From a virus: 64,000 nt of DNA. Below are positions 2,521 to 21,511 of the stretch, in pieces. The notes beneath the pieces were generated by a model that was given only the letters and a program-made list of their open reading frames with translations, was not told where the DNA came from and did not search any database. The stretch lies in the IMG/VR virus record IMGVR_UViG_3300005563_000030, positions 61,102 to 125,101 of that record; one strand, written 5' to 3'. The stretch's first letter is position 1. Every line of letters starts with the position of its first letter. The position numbers and the translations under genes were made by a program.

Positions 2521-3071
2521 TATTTACAATTTTTATTGCAAATGCCTTCTTTTAATTCATTGATTAGCCTTTGCGCGGTTTGATAGAAGGAGTTAGCTTT
2601 CTTCTCATCTTTCTCTACCACAGCTTGAGCCCCAGTGATACAAGTATGTATTTCTACTAAGCTATACGATTTTATTCTATCTTCTTTGGTACTACAATCA
2701 GTGCTTTCTAATTGTAAGTAAAGATCATTTAGCTCCTTCTCTATCAGAGTGGTTCTAAAGTATTTCTTTACTATATAAGCATTTTCGTATGGACAGATTT
2801 TGTACTTGAAAGTATAAACACCATCTGGAAGATCAACTAGATATTCTTTATTCAGAATTTCTGTAAGTCCAATAGTATTAGAATTAAATGTATTTACTTT
2901 TCTAGCTACAACATTTACCAAGAAGTACTTATTGTAACCGGGAAGGGTAACTTCAAGAAGAGGCTTTTCAGGCTCTCTAAAATAATCAGATGAATCAATA
3001 AAGACAAGAGTTTTTGGATTCCCCGTAGGGATTATTTCAAAATCCAATATATGTTGTCTAAATCCCTTCAT
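2520..3071 (-). CDS. Putative structural protein
   Basis: 183 aa ORF with LPDGVYTFKY motif, seen in crAss-like/Bacteroidota phage virion proteins (from recall). Confidence 0.5.
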   Translation of the reverse strand: MKGFRQHILDFEIIPTGNPKTLVFIDSSDYFREPEKPLLEVTLPGYNKYFLVNVVARKVNTFNSNTIGLTEILNKEYLVDLPDGVYTFKYKICPYENAYIVKKYFRTTLIEKELNDLYLQLESTDCSTKEDRIKSYSLVEIHTCITGAQAVVEKDEKKANSFYQTAQRLINELKEGICNKNCK

Positions 3072-3075
3072 AAAA

Positions 3076-3113
3076 AGTTAATGGCAGGCAGGTATTAGCA
3101 CCCACCTGCCATT
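3076..3113 (-). terminator. Intrinsic terminator-like hairpin
   Basis: AATGGCAGG...CCTGCCATT inverted repeat downstream of 3136-5022. Confidence 0.55.
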
Positions 3114-3135
3114 TTATTAAAGATGAATAATGGTA

Positions 3136-5022
3136 TTAGTCTAAGTCTATCTCTACATCATTACCAACACTTTCAGCGTAAGTAACAAGAGCTTGTTGTA
3201 AAGCTCCACCAGAACCTTCTGGTACGTAGATAGCCCAATGATAAGAGTCAGTGTAAGTTTGTGACCATCCACCTACCTTATAAGAGAAGTCAAACTCAAT
3301 AGTAAACTGATCGTAGTAAGTTTGAGGGTTAGTTTGAAGAGCATAACCTTCAGCTTCACGTACAGCAGGATCTACTGATCTTTCTTCTAAGAAGTAGGAT
3401 AGAGATTTCTTTTCTTCATCACGAACACGAGCACCAACACCTTGAGGATATTTAACACTCTGTATTTCGCTTACTGGCCATCTATTCTCACAAGGACTAG
3501 CGTTGTAGTCAGCGTTGTATTCAGAAACTTGTAAGTGAATAGTATCAGCTTCATAAGGGAAATAGTCATAAGTACAATCTCCAGTGATACGATTTACAAA
3601 TGCTGTTTCGATTAACACACCAGCTTGGATATTTGTAGCAGGAGTTACTGCTGCTTCAACCCATTGAGCATTTCCAAAAGAAGGAATTGGTGCATAAACC
3701 AGTTCATCTACAGCACAATCTACAGCAGCAGGAGCAGAAAGGATTGTAGTAGTGTATTGGTGAATACAATCTACTGGACCATCAGCTTCTTGTGTAATTG
3801 TAAGATCAGGATAGTAAGCCTGTAATTCGGCAAGACGAGAAGTACCACAAACTGTATCTTGTAGAGTGATATGATATGTTTTAGGGAAAGCAAACAGATC
3901 ACCTACGTCAGACCATGCAGTAGTAGTTGGAGTAGTTAATACACAACGACCTTTAGCAGCACCTAAGAATTGAATACTATCATTAGCACCTATTGCAGCT
4001 TGGTTAGCAGTATTAGATATTAAGATGTAAGTTGATAAACCATTAGGAGCATCACGTAATACACGAGTTGTACTTTCACCAGCAGCAGAGATACCGTAGG
4101 CAGTGCTCACAGCGGTTAAGGCAGTACCATCACCTGCGTCAGCACGTACCAGTACGTAAATATAACCAGCAGCATTAGAAGTGTAACCAGCAGGACAAGT
4201 ACCGCAATCATTGATTACGAACAATCCGGCATTAGTGAAGTTAGCAGGAGCACCACCAGTTTTGATAATCTGATAAGTACTGATGATACCATCACGAGAA
4301 ATACGTGTTACACTTTGTCCAACATACTGTACTTGTACAGCAGCCAGAGAAGCATCGTCACCGTTGTCAGCGATAGCTAAGTTGTAAACGTTGTAAGTAG
4401 TAGCACCAGAAGTGTCCAGAGCTGAACTTAACACCTTACGAGCACGGAATAGTTGACCACCACCAGCGCTCCATTTAGGATCGTTGTTGATCTTCTCAAC
4501 CAGAATGTCAGCCAGAACTGAAGGATCTACGTCTGCACAAGAATCTCCACCACACTCATCGCAGCAACCTGTGTCGATACGATATTGACGGATGAAACCT
4601 TGATTGTTATAAAGTTTGTCAATTGGGTTACCTGTTGCTTTAACATACACTGTACGAACTTCACCGCAACGAGCAGATAAAGTTTTAGTTGTGTCAATAC
4701 CATCGAAACCTACAGCTACAACTTGGTTCTGACCACGAGAAGCTGATTTACGACGGATTTTCTTCAACAGTTTACCTTTAACCAACTTAGAAAGTTGATT
4801 AGTTTGTGGGATTCCAGCCATTAAAGGCAAGTGACTTACATCGGGCATCCCTTGACCGATGTAGAGTGCTTTGTTATTCGCATAAGTGGGAGCTGAAGTA
4901 GCTGCGTAGGTATTTCCATCGAAAATACCAACTTGGCCTACTGCGAGATCCACGGTTGTACCTGATGCGAGTAAGACAGGAGTGTTTGTTACAAACACGC
5001 GTCTAAACGATTGATTCTGCAT
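3136..5022 (-). CDS. Large virion protein (auxiliary capsid/decoration-like)
   Basis: 628 aa, A/T/G-rich, highly biased codons, three genes downstream of the MCP as in crAss-like gene order. Confidence 0.6.
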   Translation of the reverse strand: MQNQSFRRVFVTNTPVLLASGTTVDLAVGQVGIFDGNTYAATSAPTYANNKALYIGQGMPDVSHLPLMAGIPQTNQLSKLVKGKLLKKIRRKSASRGQNQVVAVGFDGIDTTKTLSARCGEVRTVYVKATGNPIDKLYNNQGFIRQYRIDTGCCDECGGDSCADVDPSVLADILVEKINNDPKWSAGGGQLFRARKVLSSALDTSGATTYNVYNLAIADNGDDASLAAVQVQYVGQSVTRISRDGIISTYQIIKTGGAPANFTNAGLFVINDCGTCPAGYTSNAAGYIYVLVRADAGDGTALTAVSTAYGISAAGESTTRVLRDAPNGLSTYILISNTANQAAIGANDSIQFLGAAKGRCVLTTPTTTAWSDVGDLFAFPKTYHITLQDTVCGTSRLAELQAYYPDLTITQEADGPVDCIHQYTTTILSAPAAVDCAVDELVYAPIPSFGNAQWVEAAVTPATNIQAGVLIETAFVNRITGDCTYDYFPYEADTIHLQVSEYNADYNASPCENRWPVSEIQSVKYPQGVGARVRDEEKKSLSYFLEERSVDPAVREAEGYALQTNPQTYYDQFTIEFDFSYKVGGWSQTYTDSYHWAIYVPEGSGGALQQALVTYAESVGNDVEIDLD

Positions 5023-12498: not shown

Positions 12499-14586
12499 TT
12501 ACATTCTTGTTCCTAATGTGCGCATAGCATGTTGACTAGCTGCAAAAGGACTAGTTGATTTAGCAAATCCTGACATTGTCATAGCAAACGGAGAACTTAA
12601 GATTGGATTCTTTCTTTGATTGTCAGGTTTCTCAGGTTCTTTAATATTTATTATCGGATAATATTTATCAAGATGTCTAGCATAAGCCAGAGCGTGGCGG
12701 AAAGCCACAATGCGGTCGTAGTTACCTTCTTCAGGGTTGTATTTTATAATTTCTTGAAGTAATACAGGATCAAGAATACGAGTTACACCTAATTTATATA
12801 TAGGTTCTCTTGTATCAGGGTGTGTACCCACTTGAATCTGTTCTTTACAATACTCAATCATTAGCGACATACAGTAGTTAATGTTTGGTAGTGTTGGAGA
12901 TAATCCATATATTTTACCACCTTGGTTAGCTCTGGTGTTTGGATTAATCTCTTTTGCAATGTTAAATCCTTGACCTAACATGTGTCCTTTATTCTTACGC
13001 TCAAAGTATTGAATAAATGTACCCGCAGCGTTCTCTGGAAAGCAGACGGCATTATAATATTCTAGTAGCATTTCTACTTGTTCATGCCAATCATTCATTG
13101 AGTTTGGACGTGAAGCTAGCGCAGCAACAGGCATGTCTTGATAGGTTTCTCCAGCCACATCTGTCATACGTTTCCATAGAACAACTGTACCTAAAGAGTC
13201 TGACCAGTCGGAAATGTCATTGTTGTAAGGGTCAGCTCCCGCAATATACAAACCTCGTGGTGCATTTGAGATAGGCTCTTCCCATATAACCACTGGACAA
13301 TCTTTTCCGAGATTCCCTTTGGTTGGAAATTCACTGATGGGTCTGTCATGAGATACTGCATAACTAGTTCTAACTTTTCCAGCCGAATCTCTGAAGAATC
13401 TAACATATCTACCTGTAATATTATTTGCGTTTAAATAATCTAAGTGACTTCTAGCTGCTTCTATTGGGAATGGATTAATTGCATTAGATAAGAAACATTC
13501 TGCTGGAGTAAGTGGATAATACATTATCAACTTTTGGTACTCCACTTTATCAGGGTCTTTAGATTTCTCTTCGCGTTCTTTTAGAATGAGAGCCTTAGCT
13601 TTCTCCTTATCAGAAACCATCATAGGGATCTGATCTAAGTTAGGAGTAGCCCAGTCTATCTTCCCTTCTTTTCTGAGATAATCACCAAGTGTAGTGAGAT
13701 ATTTACAGTCAATACGATATAATCCTGACATGAAAATAGCTGTCTCTCGTCCTGTCTCAGGATCAGTTACAGCTAATAAGTTGTTTGCACTAGGATTAAA
13801 GAAGAAACGTTCAGCATCAGCTCCTTTATCAAAGCTACCACCGGTTCCGAAAAGAAGAGGTACACATCTCCATCCGAACTTGGACTTAAATGCTGGTTTA
13901 GCAGCTTCAAATGATTGAGCAAAAGCAAATTTACCAACTTCATCGGTAGCATAGGCTTTCGCAGTAACACCCGCTGGACCTTCTGTTTTGTTACCTTCTG
14001 ATACGTTACGAACAATTAAGTAAGACCAAACATGGTCATCACCACCTTTAGCTTTGAACCCTAAGCGGGTCATGTTCTTCTTAGTATCTTTATCTAGCTT
14101 TGGAATTTGTAATCCTTTCCAAAGATTCTTAATACCAAAATCAATCTTATCACGGATAAGTTGTAAGTCATCATCATTACCACCCACCACTACATTCTGT
14201 GTGTGTTCAAAGAGTTCAGCATGATAGCCCATATAAGAAGCCATAATCTCACTCTTTCCAAACTGACGCACTCCAATGTGCATATATCCTTTCTTCTCAA
14301 CACGACATTGTTCAAGATATTGACCTACTTCCCACTCATTATCTCTACAGGAAGCGAGCATTTTCTTTCTCTGTATATTACCATACTCATCCTCAACGTC
14401 ATCACGAATATTCCAATGGTTTAAATGCCAATAGAGCCACCCCGATATATCTACATTATCGAGAGTGACTCCACCCATACACTTGTCTATTTCCCATTGA
14501 ACTAGTTCTTCAAATTCAGGAGTACCTTCTACCGGAAGACTTTCCATCCTTGAAAAGAAGTCATTAATAGAATTAATCTTCAGCAT
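12499..14586 (-). CDS. terL: Terminase large subunit
   Basis: 695 aa; Walker A-like RQFGKS, Walker B DEVGK, GTGG, nuclease YIAGADPY and NYDRIVA motifs. Confidence 0.9.
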   Translation of the reverse strand: MLKINSINDFFSRMESLPVEGTPEFEELVQWEIDKCMGGVTLDNVDISGWLYWHLNHWNIRDDVEDEYGNIQRKKMLASCRDNEWEVGQYLEQCRVEKKGYMHIGVRQFGKSEIMASYMGYHAELFEHTQNVVVGGNDDDLQLIRDKIDFGIKNLWKGLQIPKLDKDTKKNMTRLGFKAKGGDDHVWSYLIVRNVSEGNKTEGPAGVTAKAYATDEVGKFAFAQSFEAAKPAFKSKFGWRCVPLLFGTGGSFDKGADAERFFFNPSANNLLAVTDPETGRETAIFMSGLYRIDCKYLTTLGDYLRKEGKIDWATPNLDQIPMMVSDKEKAKALILKEREEKSKDPDKVEYQKLIMYYPLTPAECFLSNAINPFPIEAARSHLDYLNANNITGRYVRFFRDSAGKVRTSYAVSHDRPISEFPTKGNLGKDCPVVIWEEPISNAPRGLYIAGADPYNNDISDWSDSLGTVVLWKRMTDVAGETYQDMPVAALASRPNSMNDWHEQVEMLLEYYNAVCFPENAAGTFIQYFERKNKGHMLGQGFNIAKEINPNTRANQGGKIYGLSPTLPNINYCMSLMIEYCKEQIQVGTHPDTREPIYKLGVTRILDPVLLQEIIKYNPEEGNYDRIVAFRHALAYARHLDKYYPIINIKEPEKPDNQRKNPILSSPFAMTMSGFAKSTSPFAASQHAMRTLGTRM

Positions 14587-14899
14587 TATTTCTCATTCTA
14601 TGAGGCACATCTCCACCACCACGTACTTCTTTTATGGCAGCAGCTTCTTTCTCACGAAGTTTTTCTACTACCTCGCACATAGCAAGGTATTCCTTCATGG
14701 TTTCACGTAGTGATTTTTGAATAGCCTCTTTAGTTTGTACTACAGCGTAATAAGCTCCACCATTTTTAGTTTTCATTAATTCCTTACGATCCTCTACTTC
14801 ATTGTAGGGGTTATCTAGTAAGTATTGTTTCCAGCGAGCTAATTGTTCTTCTGCAAGTTCTAGCTCTGCTGATATGTATAAGTTTTTCTTAACAGCCAT
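14573..14899 (-). CDS. Possible terminase small subunit
   Basis: 108 aa helical protein ending ...EVRGGG, overlapping terL start. Confidence 0.4.
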   Translation of the reverse strand: MAVKKNLYISAELELAEEQLARWKQYLLDNPYNEVEDRKELMKTKNGGAYYAVVQTKEAIQKSLRETMKEYLAMCEVVEKLREKEAAAIKEVRGGGDVPHRMRNNAED

Positions 14900-15215
14900 A
14901 TGGTTTTACTTCAGTTACGCGATAATATTTAGTATTAAATTTCCTTACTTTGACTATTTTTCCATTATAGTAGTAGTCTTCTACCCAGTTTTTATTTTTC
15001 ACAAAAAGTGGATCTGGTTGTTTTGGGAAGATTTGATAGTCTGTATTGATTTCATCTTTTTCAATTTCCATATCTTCTATATCTGAATAGAAGGAAGGAT
15101 CTTCAAGACGCATATCGTATTCGATAGCAAACTTCCCAATAGCCATCATAAACCCAGCATAGATAAAGTCATTATCCGTATAACTAGGTTTACACATTTC
15201 ATGTATCTCTTCCAT
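14889..15215 (-). CDS. Hypothetical protein
   Basis: 108 aa ORF. Confidence 0.55.
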   Translation of the reverse strand: MEEIHEMCKPSYTDNDFIYAGFMMAIGKFAIEYDMRLEDPSFYSDIEDMEIEKDEINTDYQIFPKQPDPLFVKNKNWVEDYYYNGKIVKVRKFNTKYYRVTEVKPYGC

Positions 15216-15228
15216 TGGTTTTTATTTG

Positions 15229-15300
15229 AGCACATAGGAAGAATCGAACTTCCGCATAACTGTTTTGCAGACAGCGACCTTACCACTTGGCTATACGTGC
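15229..15300 (-). tRNA. tRNA-Cys(GCA)
   Basis: GCACGTA/TATGTGC acceptor, loop CT-GCA-AA, GTTCGATTC T-loop, U73. Confidence 0.9.
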
Positions 15301-15659
15301 TTATTTACGAATAGCTTTTTCTTAATAACATAATCGAATATCTTCTCATTTATAAATCCTGATAAGAAGGCTCTAGCTTCTCCATCATTTACATCCTTAT
15401 CTTCTAATATGTAATCTACTAAATGAGAAATTTCATGAGTTATTATATTTACATTTAAACTCTCTTCTGAAAAGAAGACATAGTAGGTATGAAAATTATT
15501 TGGATTTATAGCCATTCCATGAAGATCATGGTCATCTTCTATATTAAATTCCCATTTCTCTCGCTTACTATATGAGTTTATCTTCTTACGAATGTCTTTG
15601 TCTATTATGACAATACACTTAAGTTGATAAACTTCTATCGGAATCACTAGTCTGAGCAT
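15291..15659 (-). CDS. Small HExxH metallopeptidase-like protein
   Basis: 122 aa with ITHEISH...EARAF. Confidence 0.55.
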   Translation of the reverse strand: MLRLVIPIEVYQLKCIVIIDKDIRKKINSYSKREKWEFNIEDDHDLHGMAINPNNFHTYYVFFSEESLNVNIITHEISHLVDYILEDKDVNDGEARAFLSGFINEKIFDYVIKKKLFVNKHV

Positions 15660-15826
15660 CTTCTGATAAGTCTAAGATCATGAATTTATAACTTTCCAAA
15701 GGATACTTTGATTCTTCTTTAGGTTCACCAAATATAGCCTTTCTTGATTCAGGACTCATAAGTTCATAGAATAACCCCATAATTGCAGCCTGATCGTATA
15801 TCTCTTCTTCCATGTAATTAGTTAAG

Positions 15827-15900
15827 TTGCGGGAGCGGGGATCGAACCCGCGTCATTTAGCTTATGAGACTAAGCTGGAACCTCTCCAGTCCACCCCGCA
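15827..15900 (-). tRNA. tRNA-Met(CAT), initiator-like acceptor stem
   Basis: TGCGGGG/TCCCGCA acceptor, loop CT-CAT-AA, GTTCGATCC T-loop; lacks the three G-C anticodon-stem pairs of canonical fMet. Confidence 0.85.
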
Positions 15901-16432
15901 ATTTTTAATCTTCTAAATATTCTCTCCAAGTCTTCGGTTTGTATCTATCTATTGCTTCATCATTACGTTTCTTGAACTCCTCAGCAGAAATAATACCTAG
16001 CCGAAATCCCCATTCAACATTAGTGAGATACATATCTCTCATTAACATCTTCTCTTTGTTCTTTATGTGTGCTTGGGTCATCATAAAGAGTATATCGTAC
16101 TCCACTTTCTTTTCCAATTTCTTCTTGTAACATCATTTCTAAGAACCTCATTGCGTCATTGTACCTCGCAGTGAGTTGTTCAATAATATAATTCTCAGAC
16201 ATACCTAAAGCTCTCCAATTATCAATTTCGTCTTGTAGGTAGTGGTTAACAATATTATTCATCTTCCTTAATATTATCTACTAACTCGTTCTCTAATTCA
16301 TCGCGATATTTCTCAAACTTCCTCAAAAGCTCTGTATCACTCCAGCCGTAACATCCTGTTTGTGGGCGAAGAATATGTACCATATGTTGCGCAATGGTAT
16401 ACTGAGGAAACAATTCCACGATCTCTGCAAAG

Positions 16433-16888
16433 TTATGGAATATCTGTGACTTTGTCTGAATCTGTTTGTTGCTCATTTTCTTGGTTTTTAAATGCGAACC
16501 ATTTAGGTTCCAGTGTTATATTGTTTTTTGTGTTGTACTCTTTTACGTTTGGTTTTGCACATCCGCATTCTGTTCCCGGATTGCAACATGATAATCCACA
16601 ATCTGATGATAATGATGATGTTTTTCTATTAATTGAACATCCACACATAACGCAATGCTCATCAATTCTGTTTGTTATATACCCATCACTAACTGCATTC
16701 GAGCTGCTGAACGGGCACGTCGAGCATATCAGTCTTCTCCTCACTATCTCCTGTTGTTCTTCCTCTGGTAACATCCCCAACTCGTTCTTCACTTGTGTTA
16801 TTGTCGCTTCCAAGATTGCTGGTGCGTTGCTCACTATTGTCGGCAGCAACGTCACGTACTCTACTAATCCTTTTAGTGTAATTTTCAT
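16433..16888 (-). CDS. Cys-rich (zinc-binding) hypothetical protein
   Basis: RRLICSTCP...HCVMCGC...KW motif. Confidence 0.65.
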   Translation of the reverse strand: MKITLKGLVEYVTLLPTIVSNAPAILEATITQVKNELGMLPEEEQQEIVRRRLICSTCPFSSSNAVSDGYITNRIDEHCVMCGCSINRKTSSLSSDCGLSCCNPGTECGCAKPNVKEYNTKNNITLEPKWFAFKNQENEQQTDSDKVTDIP

Positions 16889-17222
16889 AGAACTGTTTAG
16901 CTAATATATTTCTTTGTTTAAGAGCTTTTCTTAGCTTATCATAGTTTAATTCCAGAAGCAATTCAGTTGTTGATTGCTTATATCTGGTAGATTTTCGGAT
17001 ATTCCTTATCTTTCTAATAAGAGTAATAATCATCTGGTCTACTTTACGCTTAGAAACTGTTATAGTTCCAATATGCTTAATAGAAACAGATGTATAGTCC
17101 ATAGATGATAGAGCAGCTCTCACGCCAACCTTCCAGAAAAAAGCATTTACATCTTCTACAAGGTCAGGATCAAGGTTATTCTCTCTAGCTACCAACTTAG
17201 AAACTATATGAATATCCTTCAT
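16689..17222 (-). CDS. Possible HU/IHF-like DNA-binding protein
   Basis: Basic protein with VSIKHIGTITV strand motif; position upstream of terminase as in crAss-like phages. Confidence 0.4.
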   Translation of the reverse strand: MKDIHIVSKLVARENNLDPDLVEDVNAFFWKVGVRAALSSMDYTSVSIKHIGTITVSKRKVDQMIITLIRKIRNIRKSTRYKQSTTELLLELNYDKLRKALKQRNILAKQFYENYTKRISRVRDVAADNSEQRTSNLGSDNNTSEERVGDVTRGRTTGDSEEKTDMLDVPVQQLECS

Positions 17223-17563
17223 TAATTATTATCAATTTTAATAAGAACTCCCATAGTTGGAGTAAGCCCAAAGTCTAACTCTTTTCTAAGTGAGTATTCT
17301 TTACTGTCTACATTTCTAATCAGCATTCCAAATTTCTTCAACTTAGATAGAGTATTTTTAAGACTATCATCAGACTTTAGTATACCTGCATTTAGTATAA
17401 GGTCTTTAGTTTTTCTATTGATCTTATAAACCATAAAATATGCAAGTACTGTTAACTCTGTGTCTGAGAGCTTAACATTCATAAGTAAACAGAAGATATT
17501 AATTAATACCTTAGCTTGTTCTACTTTACTATTGGTTTTCTTTTTTATCTTTACTAGTTGCAT
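17222..17563 (-). CDS. Hypothetical protein (possible winged-helix DNA binder)
   Basis: Likely ATG start at 17563 just after promoter 17572-17603; LSDTELTVL...NTLSKLKKFGML. Confidence 0.55.
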   Translation of the reverse strand: MQLVKIKKKTNSKVEQAKVLINIFCLLMNVKLSDTELTVLAYFMVYKINRKTKDLILNAGILKSDDSLKNTLSKLKKFGMLIRNVDSKEYSLRKELDFGLTPTMGVLIKIDNN

Positions 17564-17571
17564 ATTCAGTA

Positions 17572-17603
17572 CAAATATAGAGATATTATTGCAATTTACC
17601 AAA
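17572..17603 (-). promoter_or_regulatory. Bacteroidota primary-sigma promoter
   Basis: TTTG-N20-TATATTTG. Confidence 0.75.
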
Positions 17604-17774
17604 TTTATTTTATCTCCATCCCTTCTTCTCCAGAACTTTCTATTAGCTGCTCTCGCGAACAACGAATAGTAGGTGAGTCACTGAGCGTTACACTTCTGCT
17701 GCTCCGCGAAGTACGAAGCTACGAAAAATTTCTGACATTTTCATCAATTTCGTAAACTATTTTTTAAAATAAAT

Positions 17775-17797
17775 AAAAAAGCCCCAATTAAGGGGCT
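17775..17797 (-). terminator. Intrinsic terminator closing the tRNA array
   Basis: AGCCCC-TTAATT-GGGGCTTTTTT immediately after tRNA-Trp. Confidence 0.8.
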
Positions 17798-17801
17798 ATT
17801 G

Positions 17802-17873
17802 CACGGGATGATGGTCTCGAACCACCGACACAGGTTTTGGAGACTAGCATTTTACCAACTAAACTAATCCCGT
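17802..17873 (-). tRNA. tRNA-Trp(CCA)
   Basis: ACGGGAT/ATCCCGT acceptor, loop CT-CCA-AA, GTTCGAGAC. Confidence 0.88.
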
Positions 17874-17874
17874 A

Positions 17875-17970
17875 GGTAGCCTGCGTAATAAGATACTTTT
17901 CGCGTAGTCCCAGGTTTACGCTTGAAGGGTCAGGTAAATCCCACATATCTCCTATACTATTCTCAGGCTC
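17875..17970 (-). ncRNA. Unclassified structured RNA inside tRNA operon
   Basis: AGCCTG/CAGGCT closing stem, AGATAT/GTATCT, GTGG/CTAC, TTTAC/GTAAA; ends ...CAGGCT-ACC. Confidence 0.45.
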
Positions 17971-18041
17971 TGGGTGAAGTGCAGGATCGAACTGCTTCTC
18001 CAGCTTCACATGCTAGCGCTTTTCCAGTAAGCTATCTTCAC
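17971..18041 (-). tRNA. tRNA-His(GTG)
   Basis: CTAGC-AT-GTG-AA-GCTGG anticodon arm, GTTCGATCC, ends CTTCACCCA; acceptor/T junction slightly irregular. Confidence 0.85.
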
Positions 18042-18043
18042 AG

Positions 18044-18114
18044 ATGCTCGTGATCGAATCGGACGACCTTCTCCGAGGTCAAAACTCGGTGTGATACCAA
18101 TATACCAACGAGCA
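18044..18114 (-). tRNA. tRNA-Gln(TTG)
   Basis: TGCTCGT/ACGAGCA acceptor, CCGAG-TT-TTG-AC-CTCGG, variant T-loop GTCCGATTC. Confidence 0.85.
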
Positions 18115-18122
18115 TTATATAG

Positions 18123-18195
18123 TGGGGTTCTCTGGTTACGATCCAGATCCTCCAGTTTTTCAGACTGGTGCTTCTACCAAGTTAGCTTGAACTCC
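18123..18195 (-). tRNA. tRNA-Phe(GAA)
   Basis: CCAGT-CT-GAA-AA-ACTGG, variant T-loop GATCGTAAC. Confidence 0.88.
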
Positions 18196-18200
18196 AAATG

Positions 18201-18274
18201 AGCCTGTGGTCGGAGTTGAACCGACAACCTTTCCCTTACAAGGGGACTGCTCCGCCAATTGAGCTACAGCAGGC
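18201..18274 (-). tRNA. tRNA-Thr(TGT)
   Basis: Loop CT-TGT-AA, GTTCAACTC; one bulged base in acceptor stem. Confidence 0.88.
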
Positions 18275-18280
18275 ATTGTG

Positions 18281-18375
18281 CTAATGGGGTACGACTTGAA
18301 CGACAAGCGGAGGTTAATCCCTGATTCCGCGCCGGATAGACAATCCGGTATGTCTGCCAATTTCACCACCCATTA
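18281..18375 (-). tRNA. Atypical tRNA with Asp anticodon (GTC) and long variable arm
   Basis: TAATGGG/CCCATTA-G acceptor, Leu-like D-arm TGGTGAAATTGGCAGACA, CCGGA-TT-GTC-TA-TCCGG, about 26-nt variable arm, GTTCAAGTC T-loop. Confidence 0.7.
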
Positions 18376-18380
18376 GTGTG

Positions 18381-18452
18381 CGGGAACGGAAGGGGTCGAA
18401 CCTTCAACCTACCGGTTAACAGCCGGTTGCTCTACCATTGAGCTACATTCCC
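18381..18452 (-). tRNA. tRNA-Asn(GTT)
   Basis: ACCGG-CT-GTT-AA-CCGGT, canonical D and T arms. Confidence 0.93.
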
Positions 18453-18504
18453 TGGTCGGCTCCGATTTTTTATACAGAACGTTGCCGAAGTAAACTGTTG
18501 ATCG

Positions 18505-18580
18505 CCGACTATCACGGATTTGAACCGAGGATCTCCTCTTAGACAGAGAGGCAGGGACGACCAGACTCCCCTAATAGTCG
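18505..18580 (-). tRNA. tRNA-Asp(GTC)
   Basis: CGACTAT/ATAGTCG-G acceptor, CCTCT-CT-GTC-TA-AGAGG, GTTCAAATC. Confidence 0.88.
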
Positions 18581-18621
18581 AGGTGAAGGTTCCTTCCTGG
18601 AGTATACCTACAACTATGCAG

Positions 18622-18696
18622 TCAGGGTAGCTGGATTTGAACCAGCGAACACGTGCTTCCAAGGCACGCCCATATAGCCATCTGTGGAACACCCTG
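18622..18696 (-). tRNA. tRNA-Pro(TGG)
   Basis: CAGGGTG/TACCCTG-A acceptor, CGTGC-CT-TGG-AA-GCACG. Confidence 0.88.
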
Positions 18697-18701
18697 ATAA
18701 T

Positions 18702-18727
18702 AAAAAACCCCCGGTGAAAACCGAGGG
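18702..18727 (-). terminator. Attenuator terminator of tRNA operon A
   Basis: CCCTCGG-TTTTCA-CCGGGGG-TTTTTT, 5 nt upstream of tRNA-Pro. Confidence 0.85.
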
Positions 18728-18757
18728 AAACTTTCAATTATGACAAATTTTCTTGAA

Positions 18758-18844
18758 TTACTTATTTTGGCATAATGTTCCCTCATCGAGATCTTGTTGA
18801 TCCGGTGTGAAATTATTAAACGTATTATGCCAATTGTTAATCAT
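18758..18844 (-). CDS. Attenuator leader peptide A (MINNWHNTFNNFTPDQQDLDEGTLCQNK)
   Basis: 28-aa ORF between promoter and terminator; codons 3-18 encode only N,W,H,T,F,P,D,Q, the amino acids of the downstream tRNAs. Confidence 0.85.
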   Translation of the reverse strand: MINNWHNTFNNFTPDQQDLDEGTLCQNK

Positions 18845-18848
18845 AAAA

Positions 18849-18880
18849 CAAAGATAAGTAAAATATTTGAAACTACCAAA
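18849..18880 (-). promoter_or_regulatory. Promoter of tRNA operon A
   Basis: TTTG-N20-TATCTTTG, 4 nt before leader ATG. Confidence 0.8.
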
Positions 18881-18895
18881 TATTCTTAAAAGAAG

Positions 18896-18979
18896 TCGAT
18901 GCAGAGAGATTTGAACTCCCATAGCCGAATGGCGACAGTTTTACAGACTGCTGATTTCAACCCACTTACCATTACATCG
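18896..18979 (-). tRNA. tRNA-Tyr(GTA), C1-G72
   Basis: CGATGTA/TGCATCG-A acceptor, loop CT-GTA-AA, long variable arm GCCATTCGGC. Confidence 0.85.
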
Positions 18980-19048
18980 AGATAGCTGTCTATTCCAGCT
19001 TGTCAAACCCTTTTTATTTCATACTACGTCGCCGAGATACACGACCTG

Positions 19049-19137
19049 CGGAAAGAAGAGGAACCGACCCCCACCCGATTTAACGAGACCTAGTTTTCAA
19101 GACTAGTCGGCGCTCCAATGCACCTGCTTTTCTTTCC
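19049..19137 (-). tRNA. tRNA-Ser(TGA)
   Basis: GGAAAGA/TCTTTCC-G acceptor, loop CT-TGA-AA, long variable arm, variant T-loop GGTCGGTTC. Confidence 0.82.
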
Positions 19138-19141
19138 AGAG

Positions 19142-19227
19142 CGGAGAACAGTGGCCCTGATCCACATACGTTCGATGACGTACCACCTCTTTAGCAGAGA
19201 GGGCATACCCTAGTATGTCTATTCTCC
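19142..19227 (-). tRNA. tRNA-Ser(GCT)
   Basis: GGAGAAT/GTTCTCC-G acceptor, CCTCT-CT-GCT-AA-AGAGG, long variable arm, highly variant T-loop GATCAGGGC. Confidence 0.78.
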
Positions 19228-19232
19228 AAATG

Positions 19233-19306
19233 TACTCCTAGTCAGATTTGAACTGACACTTGACAGATTTTAAGTCTGTTGACTCTCCCTGTTGGTCTAT
19301 AGGAGC
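19233..19306 (-). tRNA. tRNA-Leu(TAA), short variable loop
   Basis: ACAGA-CT-TAA-AA-TCTGT, GTTCAAATC, A73. Confidence 0.88.
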
Positions 19307-19382
19307 TGGTAGCTACGGTGAGATTTGAACTCACACTAAATAGTTTCTAAGACTATTGCCTCTCCCATTGGGCTACGTAGCC
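19307..19382 (-). tRNA. tRNA-Leu(TAG), short variable loop, encoded CCA
   Basis: ATAGT-CT-TAG-AA-ACTAT, GTTCAAATC, ends ACCA. Confidence 0.9.
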
Positions 19383-19389
19383 ATAAAAT

Positions 19390-19420
19390 AAAAAACCCCC
19401 ACTTATGAATAAGCAGGGGG
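19390..19420 (-). terminator. Attenuator terminator of tRNA operon B
   Basis: CCCCCTGCTTA-TTCA-TAAGTGGGGG-TTTTTT just upstream of tRNA-Leu(TAG). Confidence 0.85.
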
Positions 19421-19446
19421 TAAACTAAAAACGGAAAAAAGTATCT

Positions 19447-19530
19447 TTATATTCCGACAATAAGCCCCCCTGCCACAGGATAACTGAGACTAGATAAATA
19501 GGAGAGTAAATATTGCTTCACGAATTTCAT
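19447..19530 (-). CDS. Attenuator leader peptide B (MKFVKQYLLSYLSSLSYPVAGGLIVGI)
   Basis: 27-aa ORF; codons 7-17 encode only Y,L,S, the amino acids of the downstream tRNAs. Confidence 0.85.
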   Translation of the reverse strand: MKFVKQYLLSYLSSLSYPVAGGLIVGI

Positions 19531-19534
19531 AACA

Positions 19535-19566
19535 CGAAGATAGGAAAACTTTTTCAATTTTCCAAA
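19535..19566 (-). promoter_or_regulatory. Promoter of tRNA operon B
   Basis: TTTG-N20-TATCTTCG, 4 nt before leader ATG. Confidence 0.75.
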
Positions 19567-19700
19567 TTTTCATTTATTGAATAAGTACGATCACATAAAT
19601 CGCAGTAATAAACTGGTCCTAGATTTTCTCCGAACACTCCAATCTCATCTATAATTATGAATTGTTCATTACATTCAGGACATCTGTTTTCTGATTTCAT
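19554..19700 (-). CDS. Small zinc-ribbon protein (48 aa)
   Basis: MKSENRCPEC...YYCDLCDRTY; two CxxC motifs; ATG right after tRNA-Ala. Confidence 0.6.
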   Translation of the reverse strand: MKSENRCPECNEQFIIIDEIGVFGENLGPVYYCDLCDRTYSINENLEN

Positions 19701-19702
19701 AG

Positions 19703-19772
19703 TGGACACAGTGGGAATCGAACCCAAAAGTTCTCCTTGCAAGGGAGACTGCCTACCGTTGGCATCTGGCCC
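19703..19772 (-). tRNA. tRNA-Ala(TGC)
   Basis: TCTCC-CT-TGC-AA-GGAGA, G3.U70, GTTCGATTC. Confidence 0.85.
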
Positions 19773-19777
19773 AGAAG

Positions 19778-19850
19778 TAGGAAGTCTGAGAATCGAACTC
19801 AGGAGTCCACTTTGTAAGAGTGGCATATTAAACCTCTGTATGAACTTCCT
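19778..19850 (-). tRNA. tRNA-Val(TAC)
   Basis: AGGAAGT/ACTTCCT-A acceptor, CCACT-CT-TAC-AA-AGTGG. Confidence 0.87.
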
Positions 19851-19853
19851 ATG

Positions 19854-19926
19854 TCGCTGAGGGAAGAGTCGAACTTCCAGTCTTACACGTATCAGGCGTC
19901 TGCGTTAACCATTACGCTACTCAGCG
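19854..19926 (-). tRNA. tRNA-Ile(GAT)
   Basis: CGCTGAG/CTCAGCG-A acceptor, loop CT-GAT-AC. Confidence 0.87.
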
Positions 19927-19928
19927 GG

Positions 19929-20000
19929 TTGGCTCTAAGGGGGTTGAACCCTTATCCTTCTCGTTATGAGCGAGCTGCTCCACCTTTGAGCTAAGAGCCG
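19929..20000 (-). tRNA. tRNA with CAT anticodon, probably Ile2 (lysidine) rather than Met
   Basis: CTCG-CT-CAT-AA-CGAG; sits next to Ile(GAT); the operon leader has an ATA codon and no internal ATG. Confidence 0.75.
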
Positions 20001-20005
20001 ATATG

Positions 20006-20077
20006 TACTCTCGAAGGGTTTCGATCCCTCTTCTACACCTTGAAAGGGTGTCATCCTAGCCACTAGACGACGAGAGC
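20006..20077 (-). tRNA. tRNA-Glu(TTC)
   Basis: ACACC-CT-TTC-AA-GGTGT, Glu-type D-arm TCGTCTAGTGGCTAGGA, T-loop GATCGAAAC. Confidence 0.88.
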
Positions 20078-20126
20078 TGGTGTACAGACTATCACTGACC
20101 TTGGTAACTGACTTTCACAGATTTTG

Positions 20127-20197
20127 TGCGCTACTGGGGAGTCGAACCCCACCCCTCTGATTGGAAGTCAGATAGACTACCGAAATCCTTGTAACGC
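20127..20197 (-). tRNA. tRNA-Gly(TCC)
   Basis: GCG start, TCTGA-CT-TCC-AA-TCAGA, GTTCGACTC. Confidence 0.87.
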
Positions 20198-20204
20198 ATA
20201 TAAG

Positions 20205-20277
20205 AAGAGCTGGAGGGATTCAAACCCCCGACGTTCTGTTTAGAAAACAGACATTCTGTTCCCTGAATTACAGCTCT
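20205..20277 (-). tRNA. tRNA-Arg(TCT)
   Basis: AGAGCTG/CAGCTCT acceptor, TCTGT-TT-TCT-AA-ACAGA. Confidence 0.85.
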
Positions 20278-20278
20278 G

Positions 20279-20352
20279 AGGACTAGGAGCGAGTCGAACG
20301 CTCATGTTCCCGCTTCGTAGGCGGGAGCTCTATCCAGTTAAGCTACCAGTCC
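20279..20352 (-). tRNA. tRNA-Arg(ACG)
   Basis: CCCGC-CT-ACG-AA-GCGGG, canonical D and T arms. Confidence 0.92.
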
Positions 20353-20361
20353 TTATTTATG

Positions 20362-20432
20362 TACCCCCGCACGGTAACGATCCGTGTTCTACTGGTTAAA
20401 AGCCAGTAGCTTCACCTTAAAGCTTCGAGGGT
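20362..20432 (-). tRNA. tRNA-Lys(TTT)
   Basis: ACTGG-CT-TTT-AA-CCAGT, variant T-loop GATCGTTAC. Confidence 0.87.
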
Positions 20433-20434
20433 AT

Positions 20435-20474
20435 AAAAACCAAAACCCCCAAGCTTCTTTAAGGCTCAGGGGTT
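20435..20474 (-). terminator. Attenuator terminator of tRNA operon C
   Basis: AACCCCTGAGC-CTTAAAGAA-GCTTGGGGGTT-TTGGTTTTT immediately upstream of tRNA-Lys. Confidence 0.8.
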
Positions 20475-20503
20475 CGATGTTATGACACACATTAATTAAG
20501 TCA

Positions 20504-20581
20504 TTAGCAAATAGAACCACCTGAGCCACATTTGACAATGCGCTCTGCTCCTCTACCCGCTATAATGACTAATAAACTCAT
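20504..20581 (-). CDS. Attenuator leader peptide C (MSLLVIIAGRGAERIVKCGSGGSIC)
   Basis: 25-aa ORF; codons 5-17 encode only V,I,A,G,R,E,K, the amino acids of the downstream tRNAs. Confidence 0.85.
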   Translation of the reverse strand: MSLLVIIAGRGAERIVKCGSGGSIC

Positions 20582-20598
20582 TTCTTTAAATTATAATA

Positions 20599-20630
20599 CA
20601 AATATACGAAAACTTTTTTACAATTCCAAA
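20599..20630 (-). promoter_or_regulatory. Promoter of tRNA operon C
   Basis: TTTG-N20-TATATTTG, 17 nt before leader ATG. Confidence 0.8.
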
Positions 20631-21016
20631 TCTTCTTCATCACCTTCTATACTTTCGTCTTCAGGAATGTCATCTTCATAATCCAAAGGTGTGCAATCCA
20701 TAATCTGTACACCCATTTGTTCCATATACAATTCCATGAAATCTGAGAAACCTGCTTTTACTATTAAAGAACTCTCAGCCTTTCTGAAATGAATTGTGAC
20801 ATGATCCTTTTCTTTAGCTCTATTAAAGTGATGAATATCTTTTAAATCAAATACTACAGGACCATATTCATGCACAATATCCATCATAATCATGCTATCT
20901 TCTGGACCTTCATCTCCATTAATGAGACGGTTTAATTCTGCTTCTTCCCGGTTAGCTTGACTATTACGAGGAGCAAGCTCCGACCATCTCGCTAACATTT
21001 TTACAATTGTACTCAT
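20618..21016 (-). CDS. Hypothetical acidic protein
   Basis: 132 aa ORF. Confidence 0.65.
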   Translation of the reverse strand: MSTIVKMLARWSELAPRNSQANREEAELNRLINGDEGPEDSMIMMDIVHEYGPVVFDLKDIHHFNRAKEKDHVTIHFRKAESSLIVKAGFSDFMELYMEQMGVQIMDCTPLDYEDDIPEDESIEGDEEDLEL

Positions 21017-21276
21017 TTTTCTAAGTTTAATATTTTTGAAAGATCACCATCTGTTTTCTCTATAATCTCAATTAATGTATTAATATTTGATGAAGAAATA
21101 GGCTCTTTCTTTCCATTAAAGTAATCGAGGTAATCCTCTCTAGTAAACGCACACCATTTATGGGTGTATATATTATAGTGGAATAACCACTTATAAAGGT
21201 TTGTATTATTCATATTTTGCTTATTCATATGATATTCAAGTAGTTCTAAAGACTTTCTATAAATATTGTAATTCAT
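21013..21276 (-). CDS. Hypothetical protein
   Basis: WLFHYNIYTHKWCAFTR-containing ORF; start placed after promoter 21280-21311. Confidence 0.55.
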   Translation of the reverse strand: MNYNIYRKSLELLEYHMNKQNMNNTNLYKWLFHYNIYTHKWCAFTREDYLDYFNGKKEPISSSNINTLIEIIEKTDGDLSKILNLEK

Positions 21277-21279
21277 ATA

Positions 21280-21311
21280 CAAATGTACACAGAATAGTTG
21301 AAAACTCCAAA
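21280..21311 (-). promoter_or_regulatory. Bacteroidota-type promoter
   Basis: TTTG-N20-TACATTTG. Confidence 0.7.
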
Positions 21312-21511
21312 TAAAAAAGGAAGTATTTCTACTTCCTACTGTACTATTAATAAATACATATCTTTTACACACTGTTCAGTGAGGGTGAATGGGTGGCAAT
21401 CCCCCACTCTAGTAAGTCTAAATAGCTTTCTCTCTTTGTCATAATCCTGTATTAGATAGTGTGTGTAATTGTCATCAATTACTACATCATTAATTCCTGC
21501 CTTTAGTTCAT

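Follow-up and report, generated by a model that had tools for sequence, protein, structure and literature searches.

Ribosome-mediated transcription attenuation by leader peptides serves, in its textbook form, bacterial amino-acid biosynthesis. Enterobacterial examples are the trp, his, leu and phe leaders, and multivalent versions exist, i.e. the thr leader (Thr, Ile) and the ilvGMEDA leader (Ile, Leu, Val). Here we report on a 64,000-nt stretch of viral DNA (bases 61102-125101 of a 125-kb IMG/VR virus record with a completeness estimate of 81%; the whole stretch is called the window). It carries an array of 23 tRNA genes in three blocks, and each block is preceded by a leader unit in which leader-peptide attenuation is apparently wired to tRNA genes. 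Like the enterobacterial attenuators, these units comprise a short open reading frame (ORF) with control codons, an intrinsic terminator and a segment at the end of the ORF which can pair with the 5' arm of the terminator, and one leader polls several amino acids. Unlike them, the phage leaders would regulate tRNAs and not biosynthetic enzymes, and the number of amino acids polled by a single leader reaches 8 in the window and 13 in a related phage (L020). Most amino acids are represented by 1-4 codons with each isoacceptor included; a long run of a single codon is absent, and many of the transcripts would be leaderless.

The leader-peptide attenuator of the E. coli phenylalanyl-tRNA synthetase, pheST (pheM), polls one amino acid. 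As proposed here for the phage units, expression of a gene of the translation apparatus is adjusted by ribosome stalling on cognate codons and feeds back on decoding capacity. However, pheST is cellular with a protein-coding target, whereas the product of the phage units is the tRNA species themselves. T-box riboswitches bind uncharged tRNA directly, without ribosome or ORF, and handle one tRNA per leader. Both designs sense the status of a tRNA and choose between a terminator and an antiterminator; the phage units would do so via a ribosome on an ORF. To our knowledge, the regulation of phage tRNA genes by phages is little studied. A description of leader-peptide attenuators before tRNA genes was not found in the literature searched; supplements and most subscription journals lay outside this search.

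The nearest functional parallel in the literature searched is the trn operon of Anabaena sp. PCC 7120, a long tRNA array. It is stress-induced and is controlled at the promoter by TrcR, a ribbon-helix-helix repressor which acts on direct repeats (PMC8421152, PMC10272220). Going by the available portions of these papers, it resembles the phage array as an accessory set of tRNAs which is silent by default and turned on when translation is impaired. It differs in being cellular and in having no per-block, per-codon sensing. Words starting with 'attenuat', 'leader' or 'terminator' do not occur in the available portion of PMC8421152. Phage tRNAs, according to the available portions of three further papers, offset tRNA-cleaving defences such as PARIS AriB, retron effectors and PrrC (PMC11464382, PMC11555353, PMC12409363). 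Spare parts for destroyed host tRNAs are thus a plausible purpose of a leader sensor, yet in these portions tRNAs are described and not their regulation.

Leader units of the three tRNA blocks

The array and all features associated with it are on the minus strand. The 23 tRNA genes fall into blocks of 9, 5 and 9. Block A (19703-20432) consists of Lys(ttt), Arg(acg), Arg(tct), Gly(tcc), Glu(ttc), a tRNA with a CAT anticodon, Ile(gat), Val(tac) and Ala(tgc). Block B (18895-19382) has Leu(tag), Leu(taa), Ser(gct), Ser(tga) and Tyr(gta), and block C (17801-18696) Pro, Asp, Asn, a 96-nt tRNA-like gene with a GTC anticodon, Thr, Phe, Gln, His and, behind a 98-nt spacer, Trp. ARAGORN at default settings called 21 genes and Rfam added the tRNA-Ala at 19703-19772. 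The tRNA-Ser(tga) at about 19050-19137 was added by a lowered ARAGORN threshold; in Rfam it gave a sub-threshold tRNA-Sec-like match only.

A TTTG-N20-TAnnTT(T/C)G string is present upstream of all three leaders. In promoter-like site A (20599-20630; TTTG, 20 nt, TAnnTTTG) the -7 box ends 17 nt before an ATG; in sites B (19535-19566) and C (18849-18880) this distance is 4 nt. The leader ORFs which begin there have 25 codons (A, 20504-20581), 27 codons (B, 19447-19530) and 28 codons (C, 18758-18844), each plus a stop codon.

Within each ORF we found an unbroken run of codons exclusively for amino acids of the block which follows. Control run A (20531-20569) has 13 codons (5-17) for V, I, A, G, R, E and K, control run B (19480-19512) 11 codons (7-17) for Y, L and S using both Leu and both Ser codon families, and control run C (18791-18838) 16 codons (3-18) for N, W, H, T, F, P, D and Q. 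Every amino acid of a block is represented in its leader, Met as the start codon only. The correspondence extends to the anticodons, all 23 of which have a cognate codon in their own leader. For example, leader A contains one AGA and one CGC codon and its block two Arg tRNAs; its ATA codon could be read by the CAT-anticodon tRNA if this is of the Ile2 type. As a chance control all six frames of the window were scanned (127,996 residues). The Y/L/S run of 11 codons was the longest of its kind (next-best 8), as was the 16-codon run of eight amino acids in leader C (next-best 9). The 13-codon run of seven amino acids in leader A was second to one of 15 codons, located inside a real protein.

A GC hairpin with a T-run is positioned between each ORF and the first tRNA. 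Hairpin A (20446-20472; -13.1 kcal/mol), with a T-rich tail at 20445-20437, was found by folding; hairpins B (19396-19419) and C (18708-18727; -12.6 kcal/mol), each followed by a T-run, emerged from a consensus scan. The spacers between ORF and hairpin are 27-31 nt long, and counted with the T-run the hairpins are 11-13 nt upstream of the first tRNA. One or two codons past the control run, and still within the ORF, lies a segment of 8-12 nt which is complementary to the 5' arm of the hairpin, i.e. a putative antiterminator segment. Segments A (20516-20527, codons 19-22), B (19466-19475, codons 19-22) and C (18779-18786, codons 20-22) pair with their own arms at -14.7, -16.8 and -9.6 kcal/mol, respectively. 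C is the weakest of the three; all three rank first among the 23 leaders compared below.

An earlier sequence-only reading of this DNA had claimed 23 tRNAs in three blocks, each with a promoter of the above type, a leader ORF of 25-28 amino acids with all block amino acids represented, a run of 16, 11 or 13 codons for exactly these amino acids that ends at codon 17 or 18, and a hairpin with T-run whose 5' arm is matched by a segment just past the run. We recovered each of these elements in all three units, with runs ending at codons 17 (A), 17 (B) and 18 (C).

We considered whether the hairpins are terminators of the preceding block. This was rejected; they are positioned after the next promoter-like site and ORF. 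An Rfam search of 14500-21500 at E up to 0.1 yielded no leader family (Thr_leader, His_leader, Trp_leader, Leu_leader and others) and no T-box match.

Co-variation of leaders and tRNA blocks in relatives

Related loci were collected via the large terminase, TerL. A single-protein scan of IMG/VR returned one relative, and two alignment-based scans returned 80 loci each (160 in total). tRNA arrays upstream of TerL are present in a minority of the 160 loci; most have no tRNAs within 10 kb or end early. The comparison was carried out with 23 leader/block pairs from 14 non-redundant loci, the three of the window included. Blocks were set mechanically from one leader to the next with ARAGORN calls at the default and 80% thresholds. 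The leader ORFs were picked by eye. Selection by a fixed rule, i.e. the ATG ORF with 12 or more codons whose stop is nearest to the hairpin, identified the same frame in 21 of the 23 units, and in 14 units this was the only such ORF.

The relatives have blocks of different make-up: Pro-Gln-His, Pro-Gln-His-Arg-Leu-Tyr, the latter with two Ser in addition, Ala-Gln-His-Leu-Pro-Tyr-Cys, or 14 tRNAs for 13 amino acids. The content of the leaders tracks these differences. Scored against their own blocks the runs sum to 124.5, and 20,000 shuffled pairings gave a mean of 45.6 and a maximum of 80.2, i.e. none reached the observed value. The own block ranked first for 14 of the 23 leaders. With default ARAGORN calls only, the score was 99.7 against a shuffled maximum of 79.8. 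Of 148 block amino acids 147 are present in the own leader, and the one that is absent goes back to a low-threshold tRNA call which is doubtful. In shuffled pairings 46.6 were missing on average and 24 at the minimum. Similar leaders were sorted by eye into four groups. Within these groups, presence of a tRNA went along with a higher frequency of its residue in 19 comparisons, with a lower one in 2 and with an equal one in 3. Thus, the check proposed along with the earlier reading, whether leader content follows cluster composition in related phages, came out in its favor. We also considered that the leader ORFs encode real small proteins. This was rejected; the sequences drift while the composition tracks the tRNAs.

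Next to the codons, the pairing elements were compared. A hairpin with a T-run is located directly before the first tRNA in 23/23 units, with a gap of 6-16 nt in 22 of them. The exceptional gap of 91 nt (L003_A) is due to a tRNA-Lys, seen there by eye, that ARAGORN did not call. The stop codon of the leader is 18-43 nt upstream of the hairpin in all units. The best partner of the terminator 5' arm within the leader starts at codons 16-26, just behind the run, and in 15/23 units this pairing is better than that of shuffled leaders at z < -2. In a control that retains base composition each leader was paired with the arm of every other unit. The own pairings sum to -279.9 kcal/mol; the shuffled mean was -186.0 (sd 10.3, minimum -234.2), and again 0/20,000 shuffles reached the observed value. 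For 10 of the 23 arms the own leader ranked first. Furthermore, leaders A and B of the window were aligned with those of L002 and L003. Judged by eye, a base substitution in the 5' arm goes along with matching ones at two places, the 3' arm and the upstream segment, as predicted for two mutually exclusive helices.

The design is present in two cultured phages, which makes experiments possible. Their six units were read by eye and are outside the 23-pair statistics. Leptolyngbya phage Lbo-JY46 has three leader units. The leader of its Pro-Thr-Phe-Gln-His block contains all five amino acids, and that of a block starting with Cys-Cys-Arg has six Cys codons. A partial mismatch is the leader of the Leu-Leu block, with a Tyr/Ser/Leu run and no Ser or Tyr tRNA annotated in the block. 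Cellulophaga phage phi17:2, the TerL of which is 28.7% identical, also has three units. Its Pro-Glu-Gln-His-Leu-Leu-Arg block is preceded by an 11-residue leader run of only those six amino acids. The gene gp077, a 39-codon 'hypothetical protein', is the leader of the Ala-Ile-Gly-Met-Asp-Thr-Val-Arg block, and the third leader contains Tyr, Ser, Asn, Trp and Phe before those tRNAs, plus Cys and Thr.

Could the short ORFs be untranslated and irrelevant, the hairpins plain terminators or processing signals, and the match a product of chance or ancestry? Translation of the leaders is predicted from sequence, the pairs are phylogenetically related, and one locus, L048, retains a leader without the matching tRNAs. 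On the other hand, none of 20,000 shuffles reached the observed match on any of three measures, the differences among related leaders follow tRNA gain and loss (19 vs 2), and the same design is encountered at 28.7% TerL identity. Moreover, a plain terminator after a promoter and directly before the tRNAs would silence the block. We therefore regard this explanation as the least probable of those considered, with next to no weight.

A different question is what the leaders respond to. The attenuators may be as described, with amino-acid starvation or translational health, and not the amount of a tRNA species, as the signal, such that tRNA synthesis is coupled to the state of the host. A stalled ribosome is blind to the difference between a missing and an uncharged tRNA, as in attenuators of the trp and his type, and many amino acids are polled at once by the leaders of the window (8, 3 and 8). 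However, the choice of codons tracks the isoacceptor. Over the 23 pairs the ORF offers a cognate codon for 170 of the 171 anticodons in the blocks. The run codons are readable by block tRNAs in 255/255 cases if U34 reads four-codon boxes, and in 210 by strict wobble. All 57 Arg, Leu and Ser codons in the runs belong to a codon family for which the block has a tRNA. In nine cases, with Arg or Leu, only one of two families is covered by the block; the other family was never used in the run (0/9) and the cognate one was in 8/9. In addition, an extra tRNA gives no relief from amino-acid starvation and the regulated genes better fit a signal of tRNA supply. Starvation as the signal therefore appears improbable to us.

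Proposed switch and ribosome-dependent folding

A ribosome-mediated attenuator has a short ORF with cognate codons between promoter and regulated genes, an intrinsic terminator between ORF and first gene, and an alternative antiterminator pairing placed for a stalled ribosome. The first was observed in 3/3 leaders of the window and the second in 23/23 units. The third exists as well, although it is weak for leader C. Judged from these sequence features we consider it likely that each block is gated by a ribosome-mediated transcription attenuator whose control codons are those read by its own tRNAs. On the comparative evidence this reading of the layout is strongly supported: it holds in the co-variation of leader and block and in an antiterminator pairing which is specific for the own terminator.

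We suggest the following sequence of events. Transcription would begin at the Bacteroidota-type promoter and the leader would be translated by a ribosome. When the whole run is decoded fast, the ribosome would come to cover the G-rich segment behind it, the terminator would form and transcription would halt 11-13 nt short of the first tRNA. When any codon of the run is slow, i.e. its tRNA is scarce, cleaved or uncharged, the ribosome would stall upstream, the segment would pair with the 5' arm of the terminator and RNA polymerase would enter the block. Fresh phage tRNAs would then quicken decoding and close the gate, a negative feedback on tRNA supply for each block. Anatomy, conservation, codon/tRNA co-variation and specific complementarity are observed in the sequences; from them we infer where transcription starts, that the leaders are translated, which way the switch works and that it feeds back.

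In leaders B and C the AUG would be at or adjoining the 5' end of the transcript. Among all leaders 12/23, B and C of the window included, have the ATG 4-5 nt downstream of the -7 box. The position of the start site at such promoters in Bacteroides is the basis for regarding the transcripts of B and C as probably leaderless or nearly so. With a Bacteroides-like start, mRNAs produced with this spacing would be leaderless, and the loading of ribosomes would be tied to initiation. Five relatives differ in that their leader follows 8-20 nt behind a tRNA-Glu or tRNA-Met gene.

Folding was examined with and without a masked ribosome footprint; it should be noted that this is an equilibrium model of a kinetic process. 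In the absence of a ribosome, the ORF of leader A is paired internally and the terminator is present. Placing the A site at codons 6, 7 or 9-14 abolishes this hairpin, but positions at codon 15 and beyond leave it intact. In the model leader A thus behaves like a textbook attenuator. In leader B the antiterminator is the minimum-energy fold without a ribosome as well as with a ribosome at the stop codon, and yields only while codons 16-27 are occupied. The 'off' state of leader B would then rest on kinetics. In leader C, wherever the ribosome was placed in the model, the minimum-energy fold retained the terminator (-12.6 kcal/mol against -9.6 kcal/mol for the antiterminator). The predicted switching was accordingly seen in leader A, whereas in B the antiterminator is present by default and in C the terminator persists. 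This suggests a leaky or default-on behavior of leader B and a weak antiterminator in leader C. The sequence-only reading, that tRNAs are transcribed only when a matching tRNA is cleaved or uncharged, was too strong in this respect.

These folds also bear on an inverted logic, in which efficient translation promotes read-through, e.g. by melting the terminator, and a stall terminates, amounting to a positive feedback or competence check. That the antiterminator of leader B re-forms in the model with a ribosome at the stop codon would agree with this, as would the last control codons being near enough for a ribosome to mask the segment. On the other side, the stop codon is, in all 23 units, at a distance from the hairpin that is beyond the reach of a terminating ribosome. 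The arm-complementary segment is inside the ORF behind the run, the classical arrangement for stall-to-read-through, and the leader A model loses its terminator only for stalls within the run. We thus hold the inverted logic to be very improbable.

Several points weigh against attenuation. Besides the modelled behavior of leaders B and C, the antiterminator segment begins just 1-2 codons past the run. If the trp leader is a guide to the geometry, a ribosome that stalls on roughly the last three codons of the run should cover this segment, and in leader A the sole codon for Lys is number 17. The own-arm pairing is poor in L093 (rank 17 of 23) and L002_C (rank 10 of 23). In L096, L051 and L038 the own-block runs are just 3, 5 and 6 codons long, and the leader in L048, rich in L, R, P, S, Y, Q and H codons, is followed by Pro (a low-threshold call), Val and Gly tRNAs only. 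The pairs are related by descent and form about five leader groups, so that the shuffle counts suggest more independent events than there are. The lowered ARAGORN threshold was required for part of the tRNA calls, and the presumed transcription start sites are placed by motif only. As a separate observation, the mismatching leader L048:6220-6346 gave a sub-threshold Rfam match to Thr_leader (25.2 bits vs a cut-off of 55, E 0.061).

If attenuation does gate the blocks, the ribosome gauges the supply of tRNA at each codon, and the tRNAs produced replenish the pool. This would be a new regulatory logic for tRNA genes. It would account for the timing and dosing of the tRNA arrays of large phages and for the sorting of tRNAs into blocks, and it would provide compact sensors of natural origin that report decoding speed for as many as 13 amino acids simultaneously. 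The role of phage tRNAs, be it codon-usage supply, replacement of degraded host tRNAs or counter-defence, would become directly testable. A more far-reaching possibility is a per-isoacceptor alarm: loss of any of the 19 decoded amino-acid classes to a host anticodon nuclease or another tRNA-depleting defence would stall ribosomes on the matching leader codon and turn on the block with the replacement tRNA. A leader sensor cannot tell a missing from an uncharged tRNA, and we consider the alarm tentative and on the whole rather unlikely. If true, the alarm would amount to an inducible counter-defence. It would be common in crAss-related phages of Bacteroidota and would also account for the sorting of the tRNAs into blocks.

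The phage and further features of its tRNA array

The window encodes a portal protein, a large terminase, a major head protein and a DNA polymerase. TerL relatives number in the hundreds, on contigs of about 115-133 kb; two carry the NCBI name Chitinophaga proteins. The closest, P0001 and P0002, are 85-86% identical. Distant relatives (24-31% identity) are from phages of Cellulophaga, Flavobacterium and Bacteroides, crAss-like phages included. The nearest cultured relative is Lbo-JY46 (L163, PP438436.1) with 44.6% TerL identity. From the promoter type and the TerL relatives the host is likely a member of the Bacteroidota. The recorded host of Lbo-JY46 is a cyanobacterium, which does not fit this reading, yet Bacteroidota-type promoter strings are present before its leaders. 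Either the motif belongs to the phage or the recorded host needs a second look.

A blastn search of the array against 50,697 phage records produced single-tRNA matches only, covering at most 5% of the query, and no close relative. Contigs of four DNA runs compared with the stretch gave only low-depth identical pieces and tRNAs of other organisms, and a search for RNA runs that contain the stretch had no hit. A search for tRNAs in the whole records of five relatives identified one tRNA in three of them, none in one and six dispersed ones in G004. In the G004 stretch which holds the dispersed tRNAs (L082) no leader units were seen by eye.

Several features of the array deserve mention. The final terminator, found in the consensus scan, is at 17780-17797. 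The 96-nt tRNA-like gene of block C (18280-18375) has, according to ARAGORN, a long variable arm and a GTC (Asp) anticodon. It gave no Rfam tRNA match at E up to 0.1 and a fold z of -2.97; genes resembling it were seen by eye at the equivalent position in L002 and L003. The 98-nt spacer between tRNA-His and tRNA-Trp (17874-17971) contains no tRNA call and no significant fold (z -0.38); in L002 and L003 the gaps there are just 1 and 4 nt. A 48-codon ORF with two Cys-x-x-Cys pairs (19554-19700) starts right behind tRNA-Ala and ends within promoter-like site B. Its zinc-finger matches are sub-threshold only, and L003 has no such ORF there (gap 40 nt). In a Pfam search with seven ORFs neighbouring the array nothing exceeded the curated cut-offs. 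Between the array and the terminase gene a CAT-anticodon tRNA (15826-15900) and a tRNA-Cys (15228-15300), also on the minus strand, are located directly behind protein ORFs. They have no leader or terminator of their own; the same pair is in the same place in L002 and L003.

Outside of the window, an ORF of the PolyA_pol family (G000:C1:1780-2196; 69.1 bits) probably encodes a CCA-adding enzyme. The CCA end is apparently not encoded in the phage tRNA genes, as seen by eye in tRNA-Trp. RtcB and an Rnl2-type ligase were not found in the record, which is 81% complete; its gene content thus provided no tie between the leaders and anticodon nucleases.

In relatives protein ORFs are inserted in tRNA blocks without a new leader (L108:2526-2969 and 3224-3502; L113:1110-1618 and 2707-3220; L163:3562-4389). 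Among them are Cys/His-rich ORFs and one annotated as a homing endonuclease. The tRNAs on the far side of the insertion are still represented in the upstream leader, suggesting that the operon reads through the inserted ORFs.

Lastly, four relatives have a promoter-like site and, downstream of it, an ATG ORF with many Glu codons towards its end (L016:5460-5568, L020:2527-2634, L108:3835-3943 and L113:606-711). The ORF continues directly into a lone tRNA-Glu gene, and no terminator intervenes. The next leader lies 8-20 nt past this tRNA in three of these relatives and 635 nt past it in L016. Such an arrangement may represent another, translation-coupled kind of control over a single tRNA. If the leaders were indeed alarms against host nucleases, the Glu-rich ORF with its lone tRNA-Glu would represent a second, translation-coupled form of tRNA gating.

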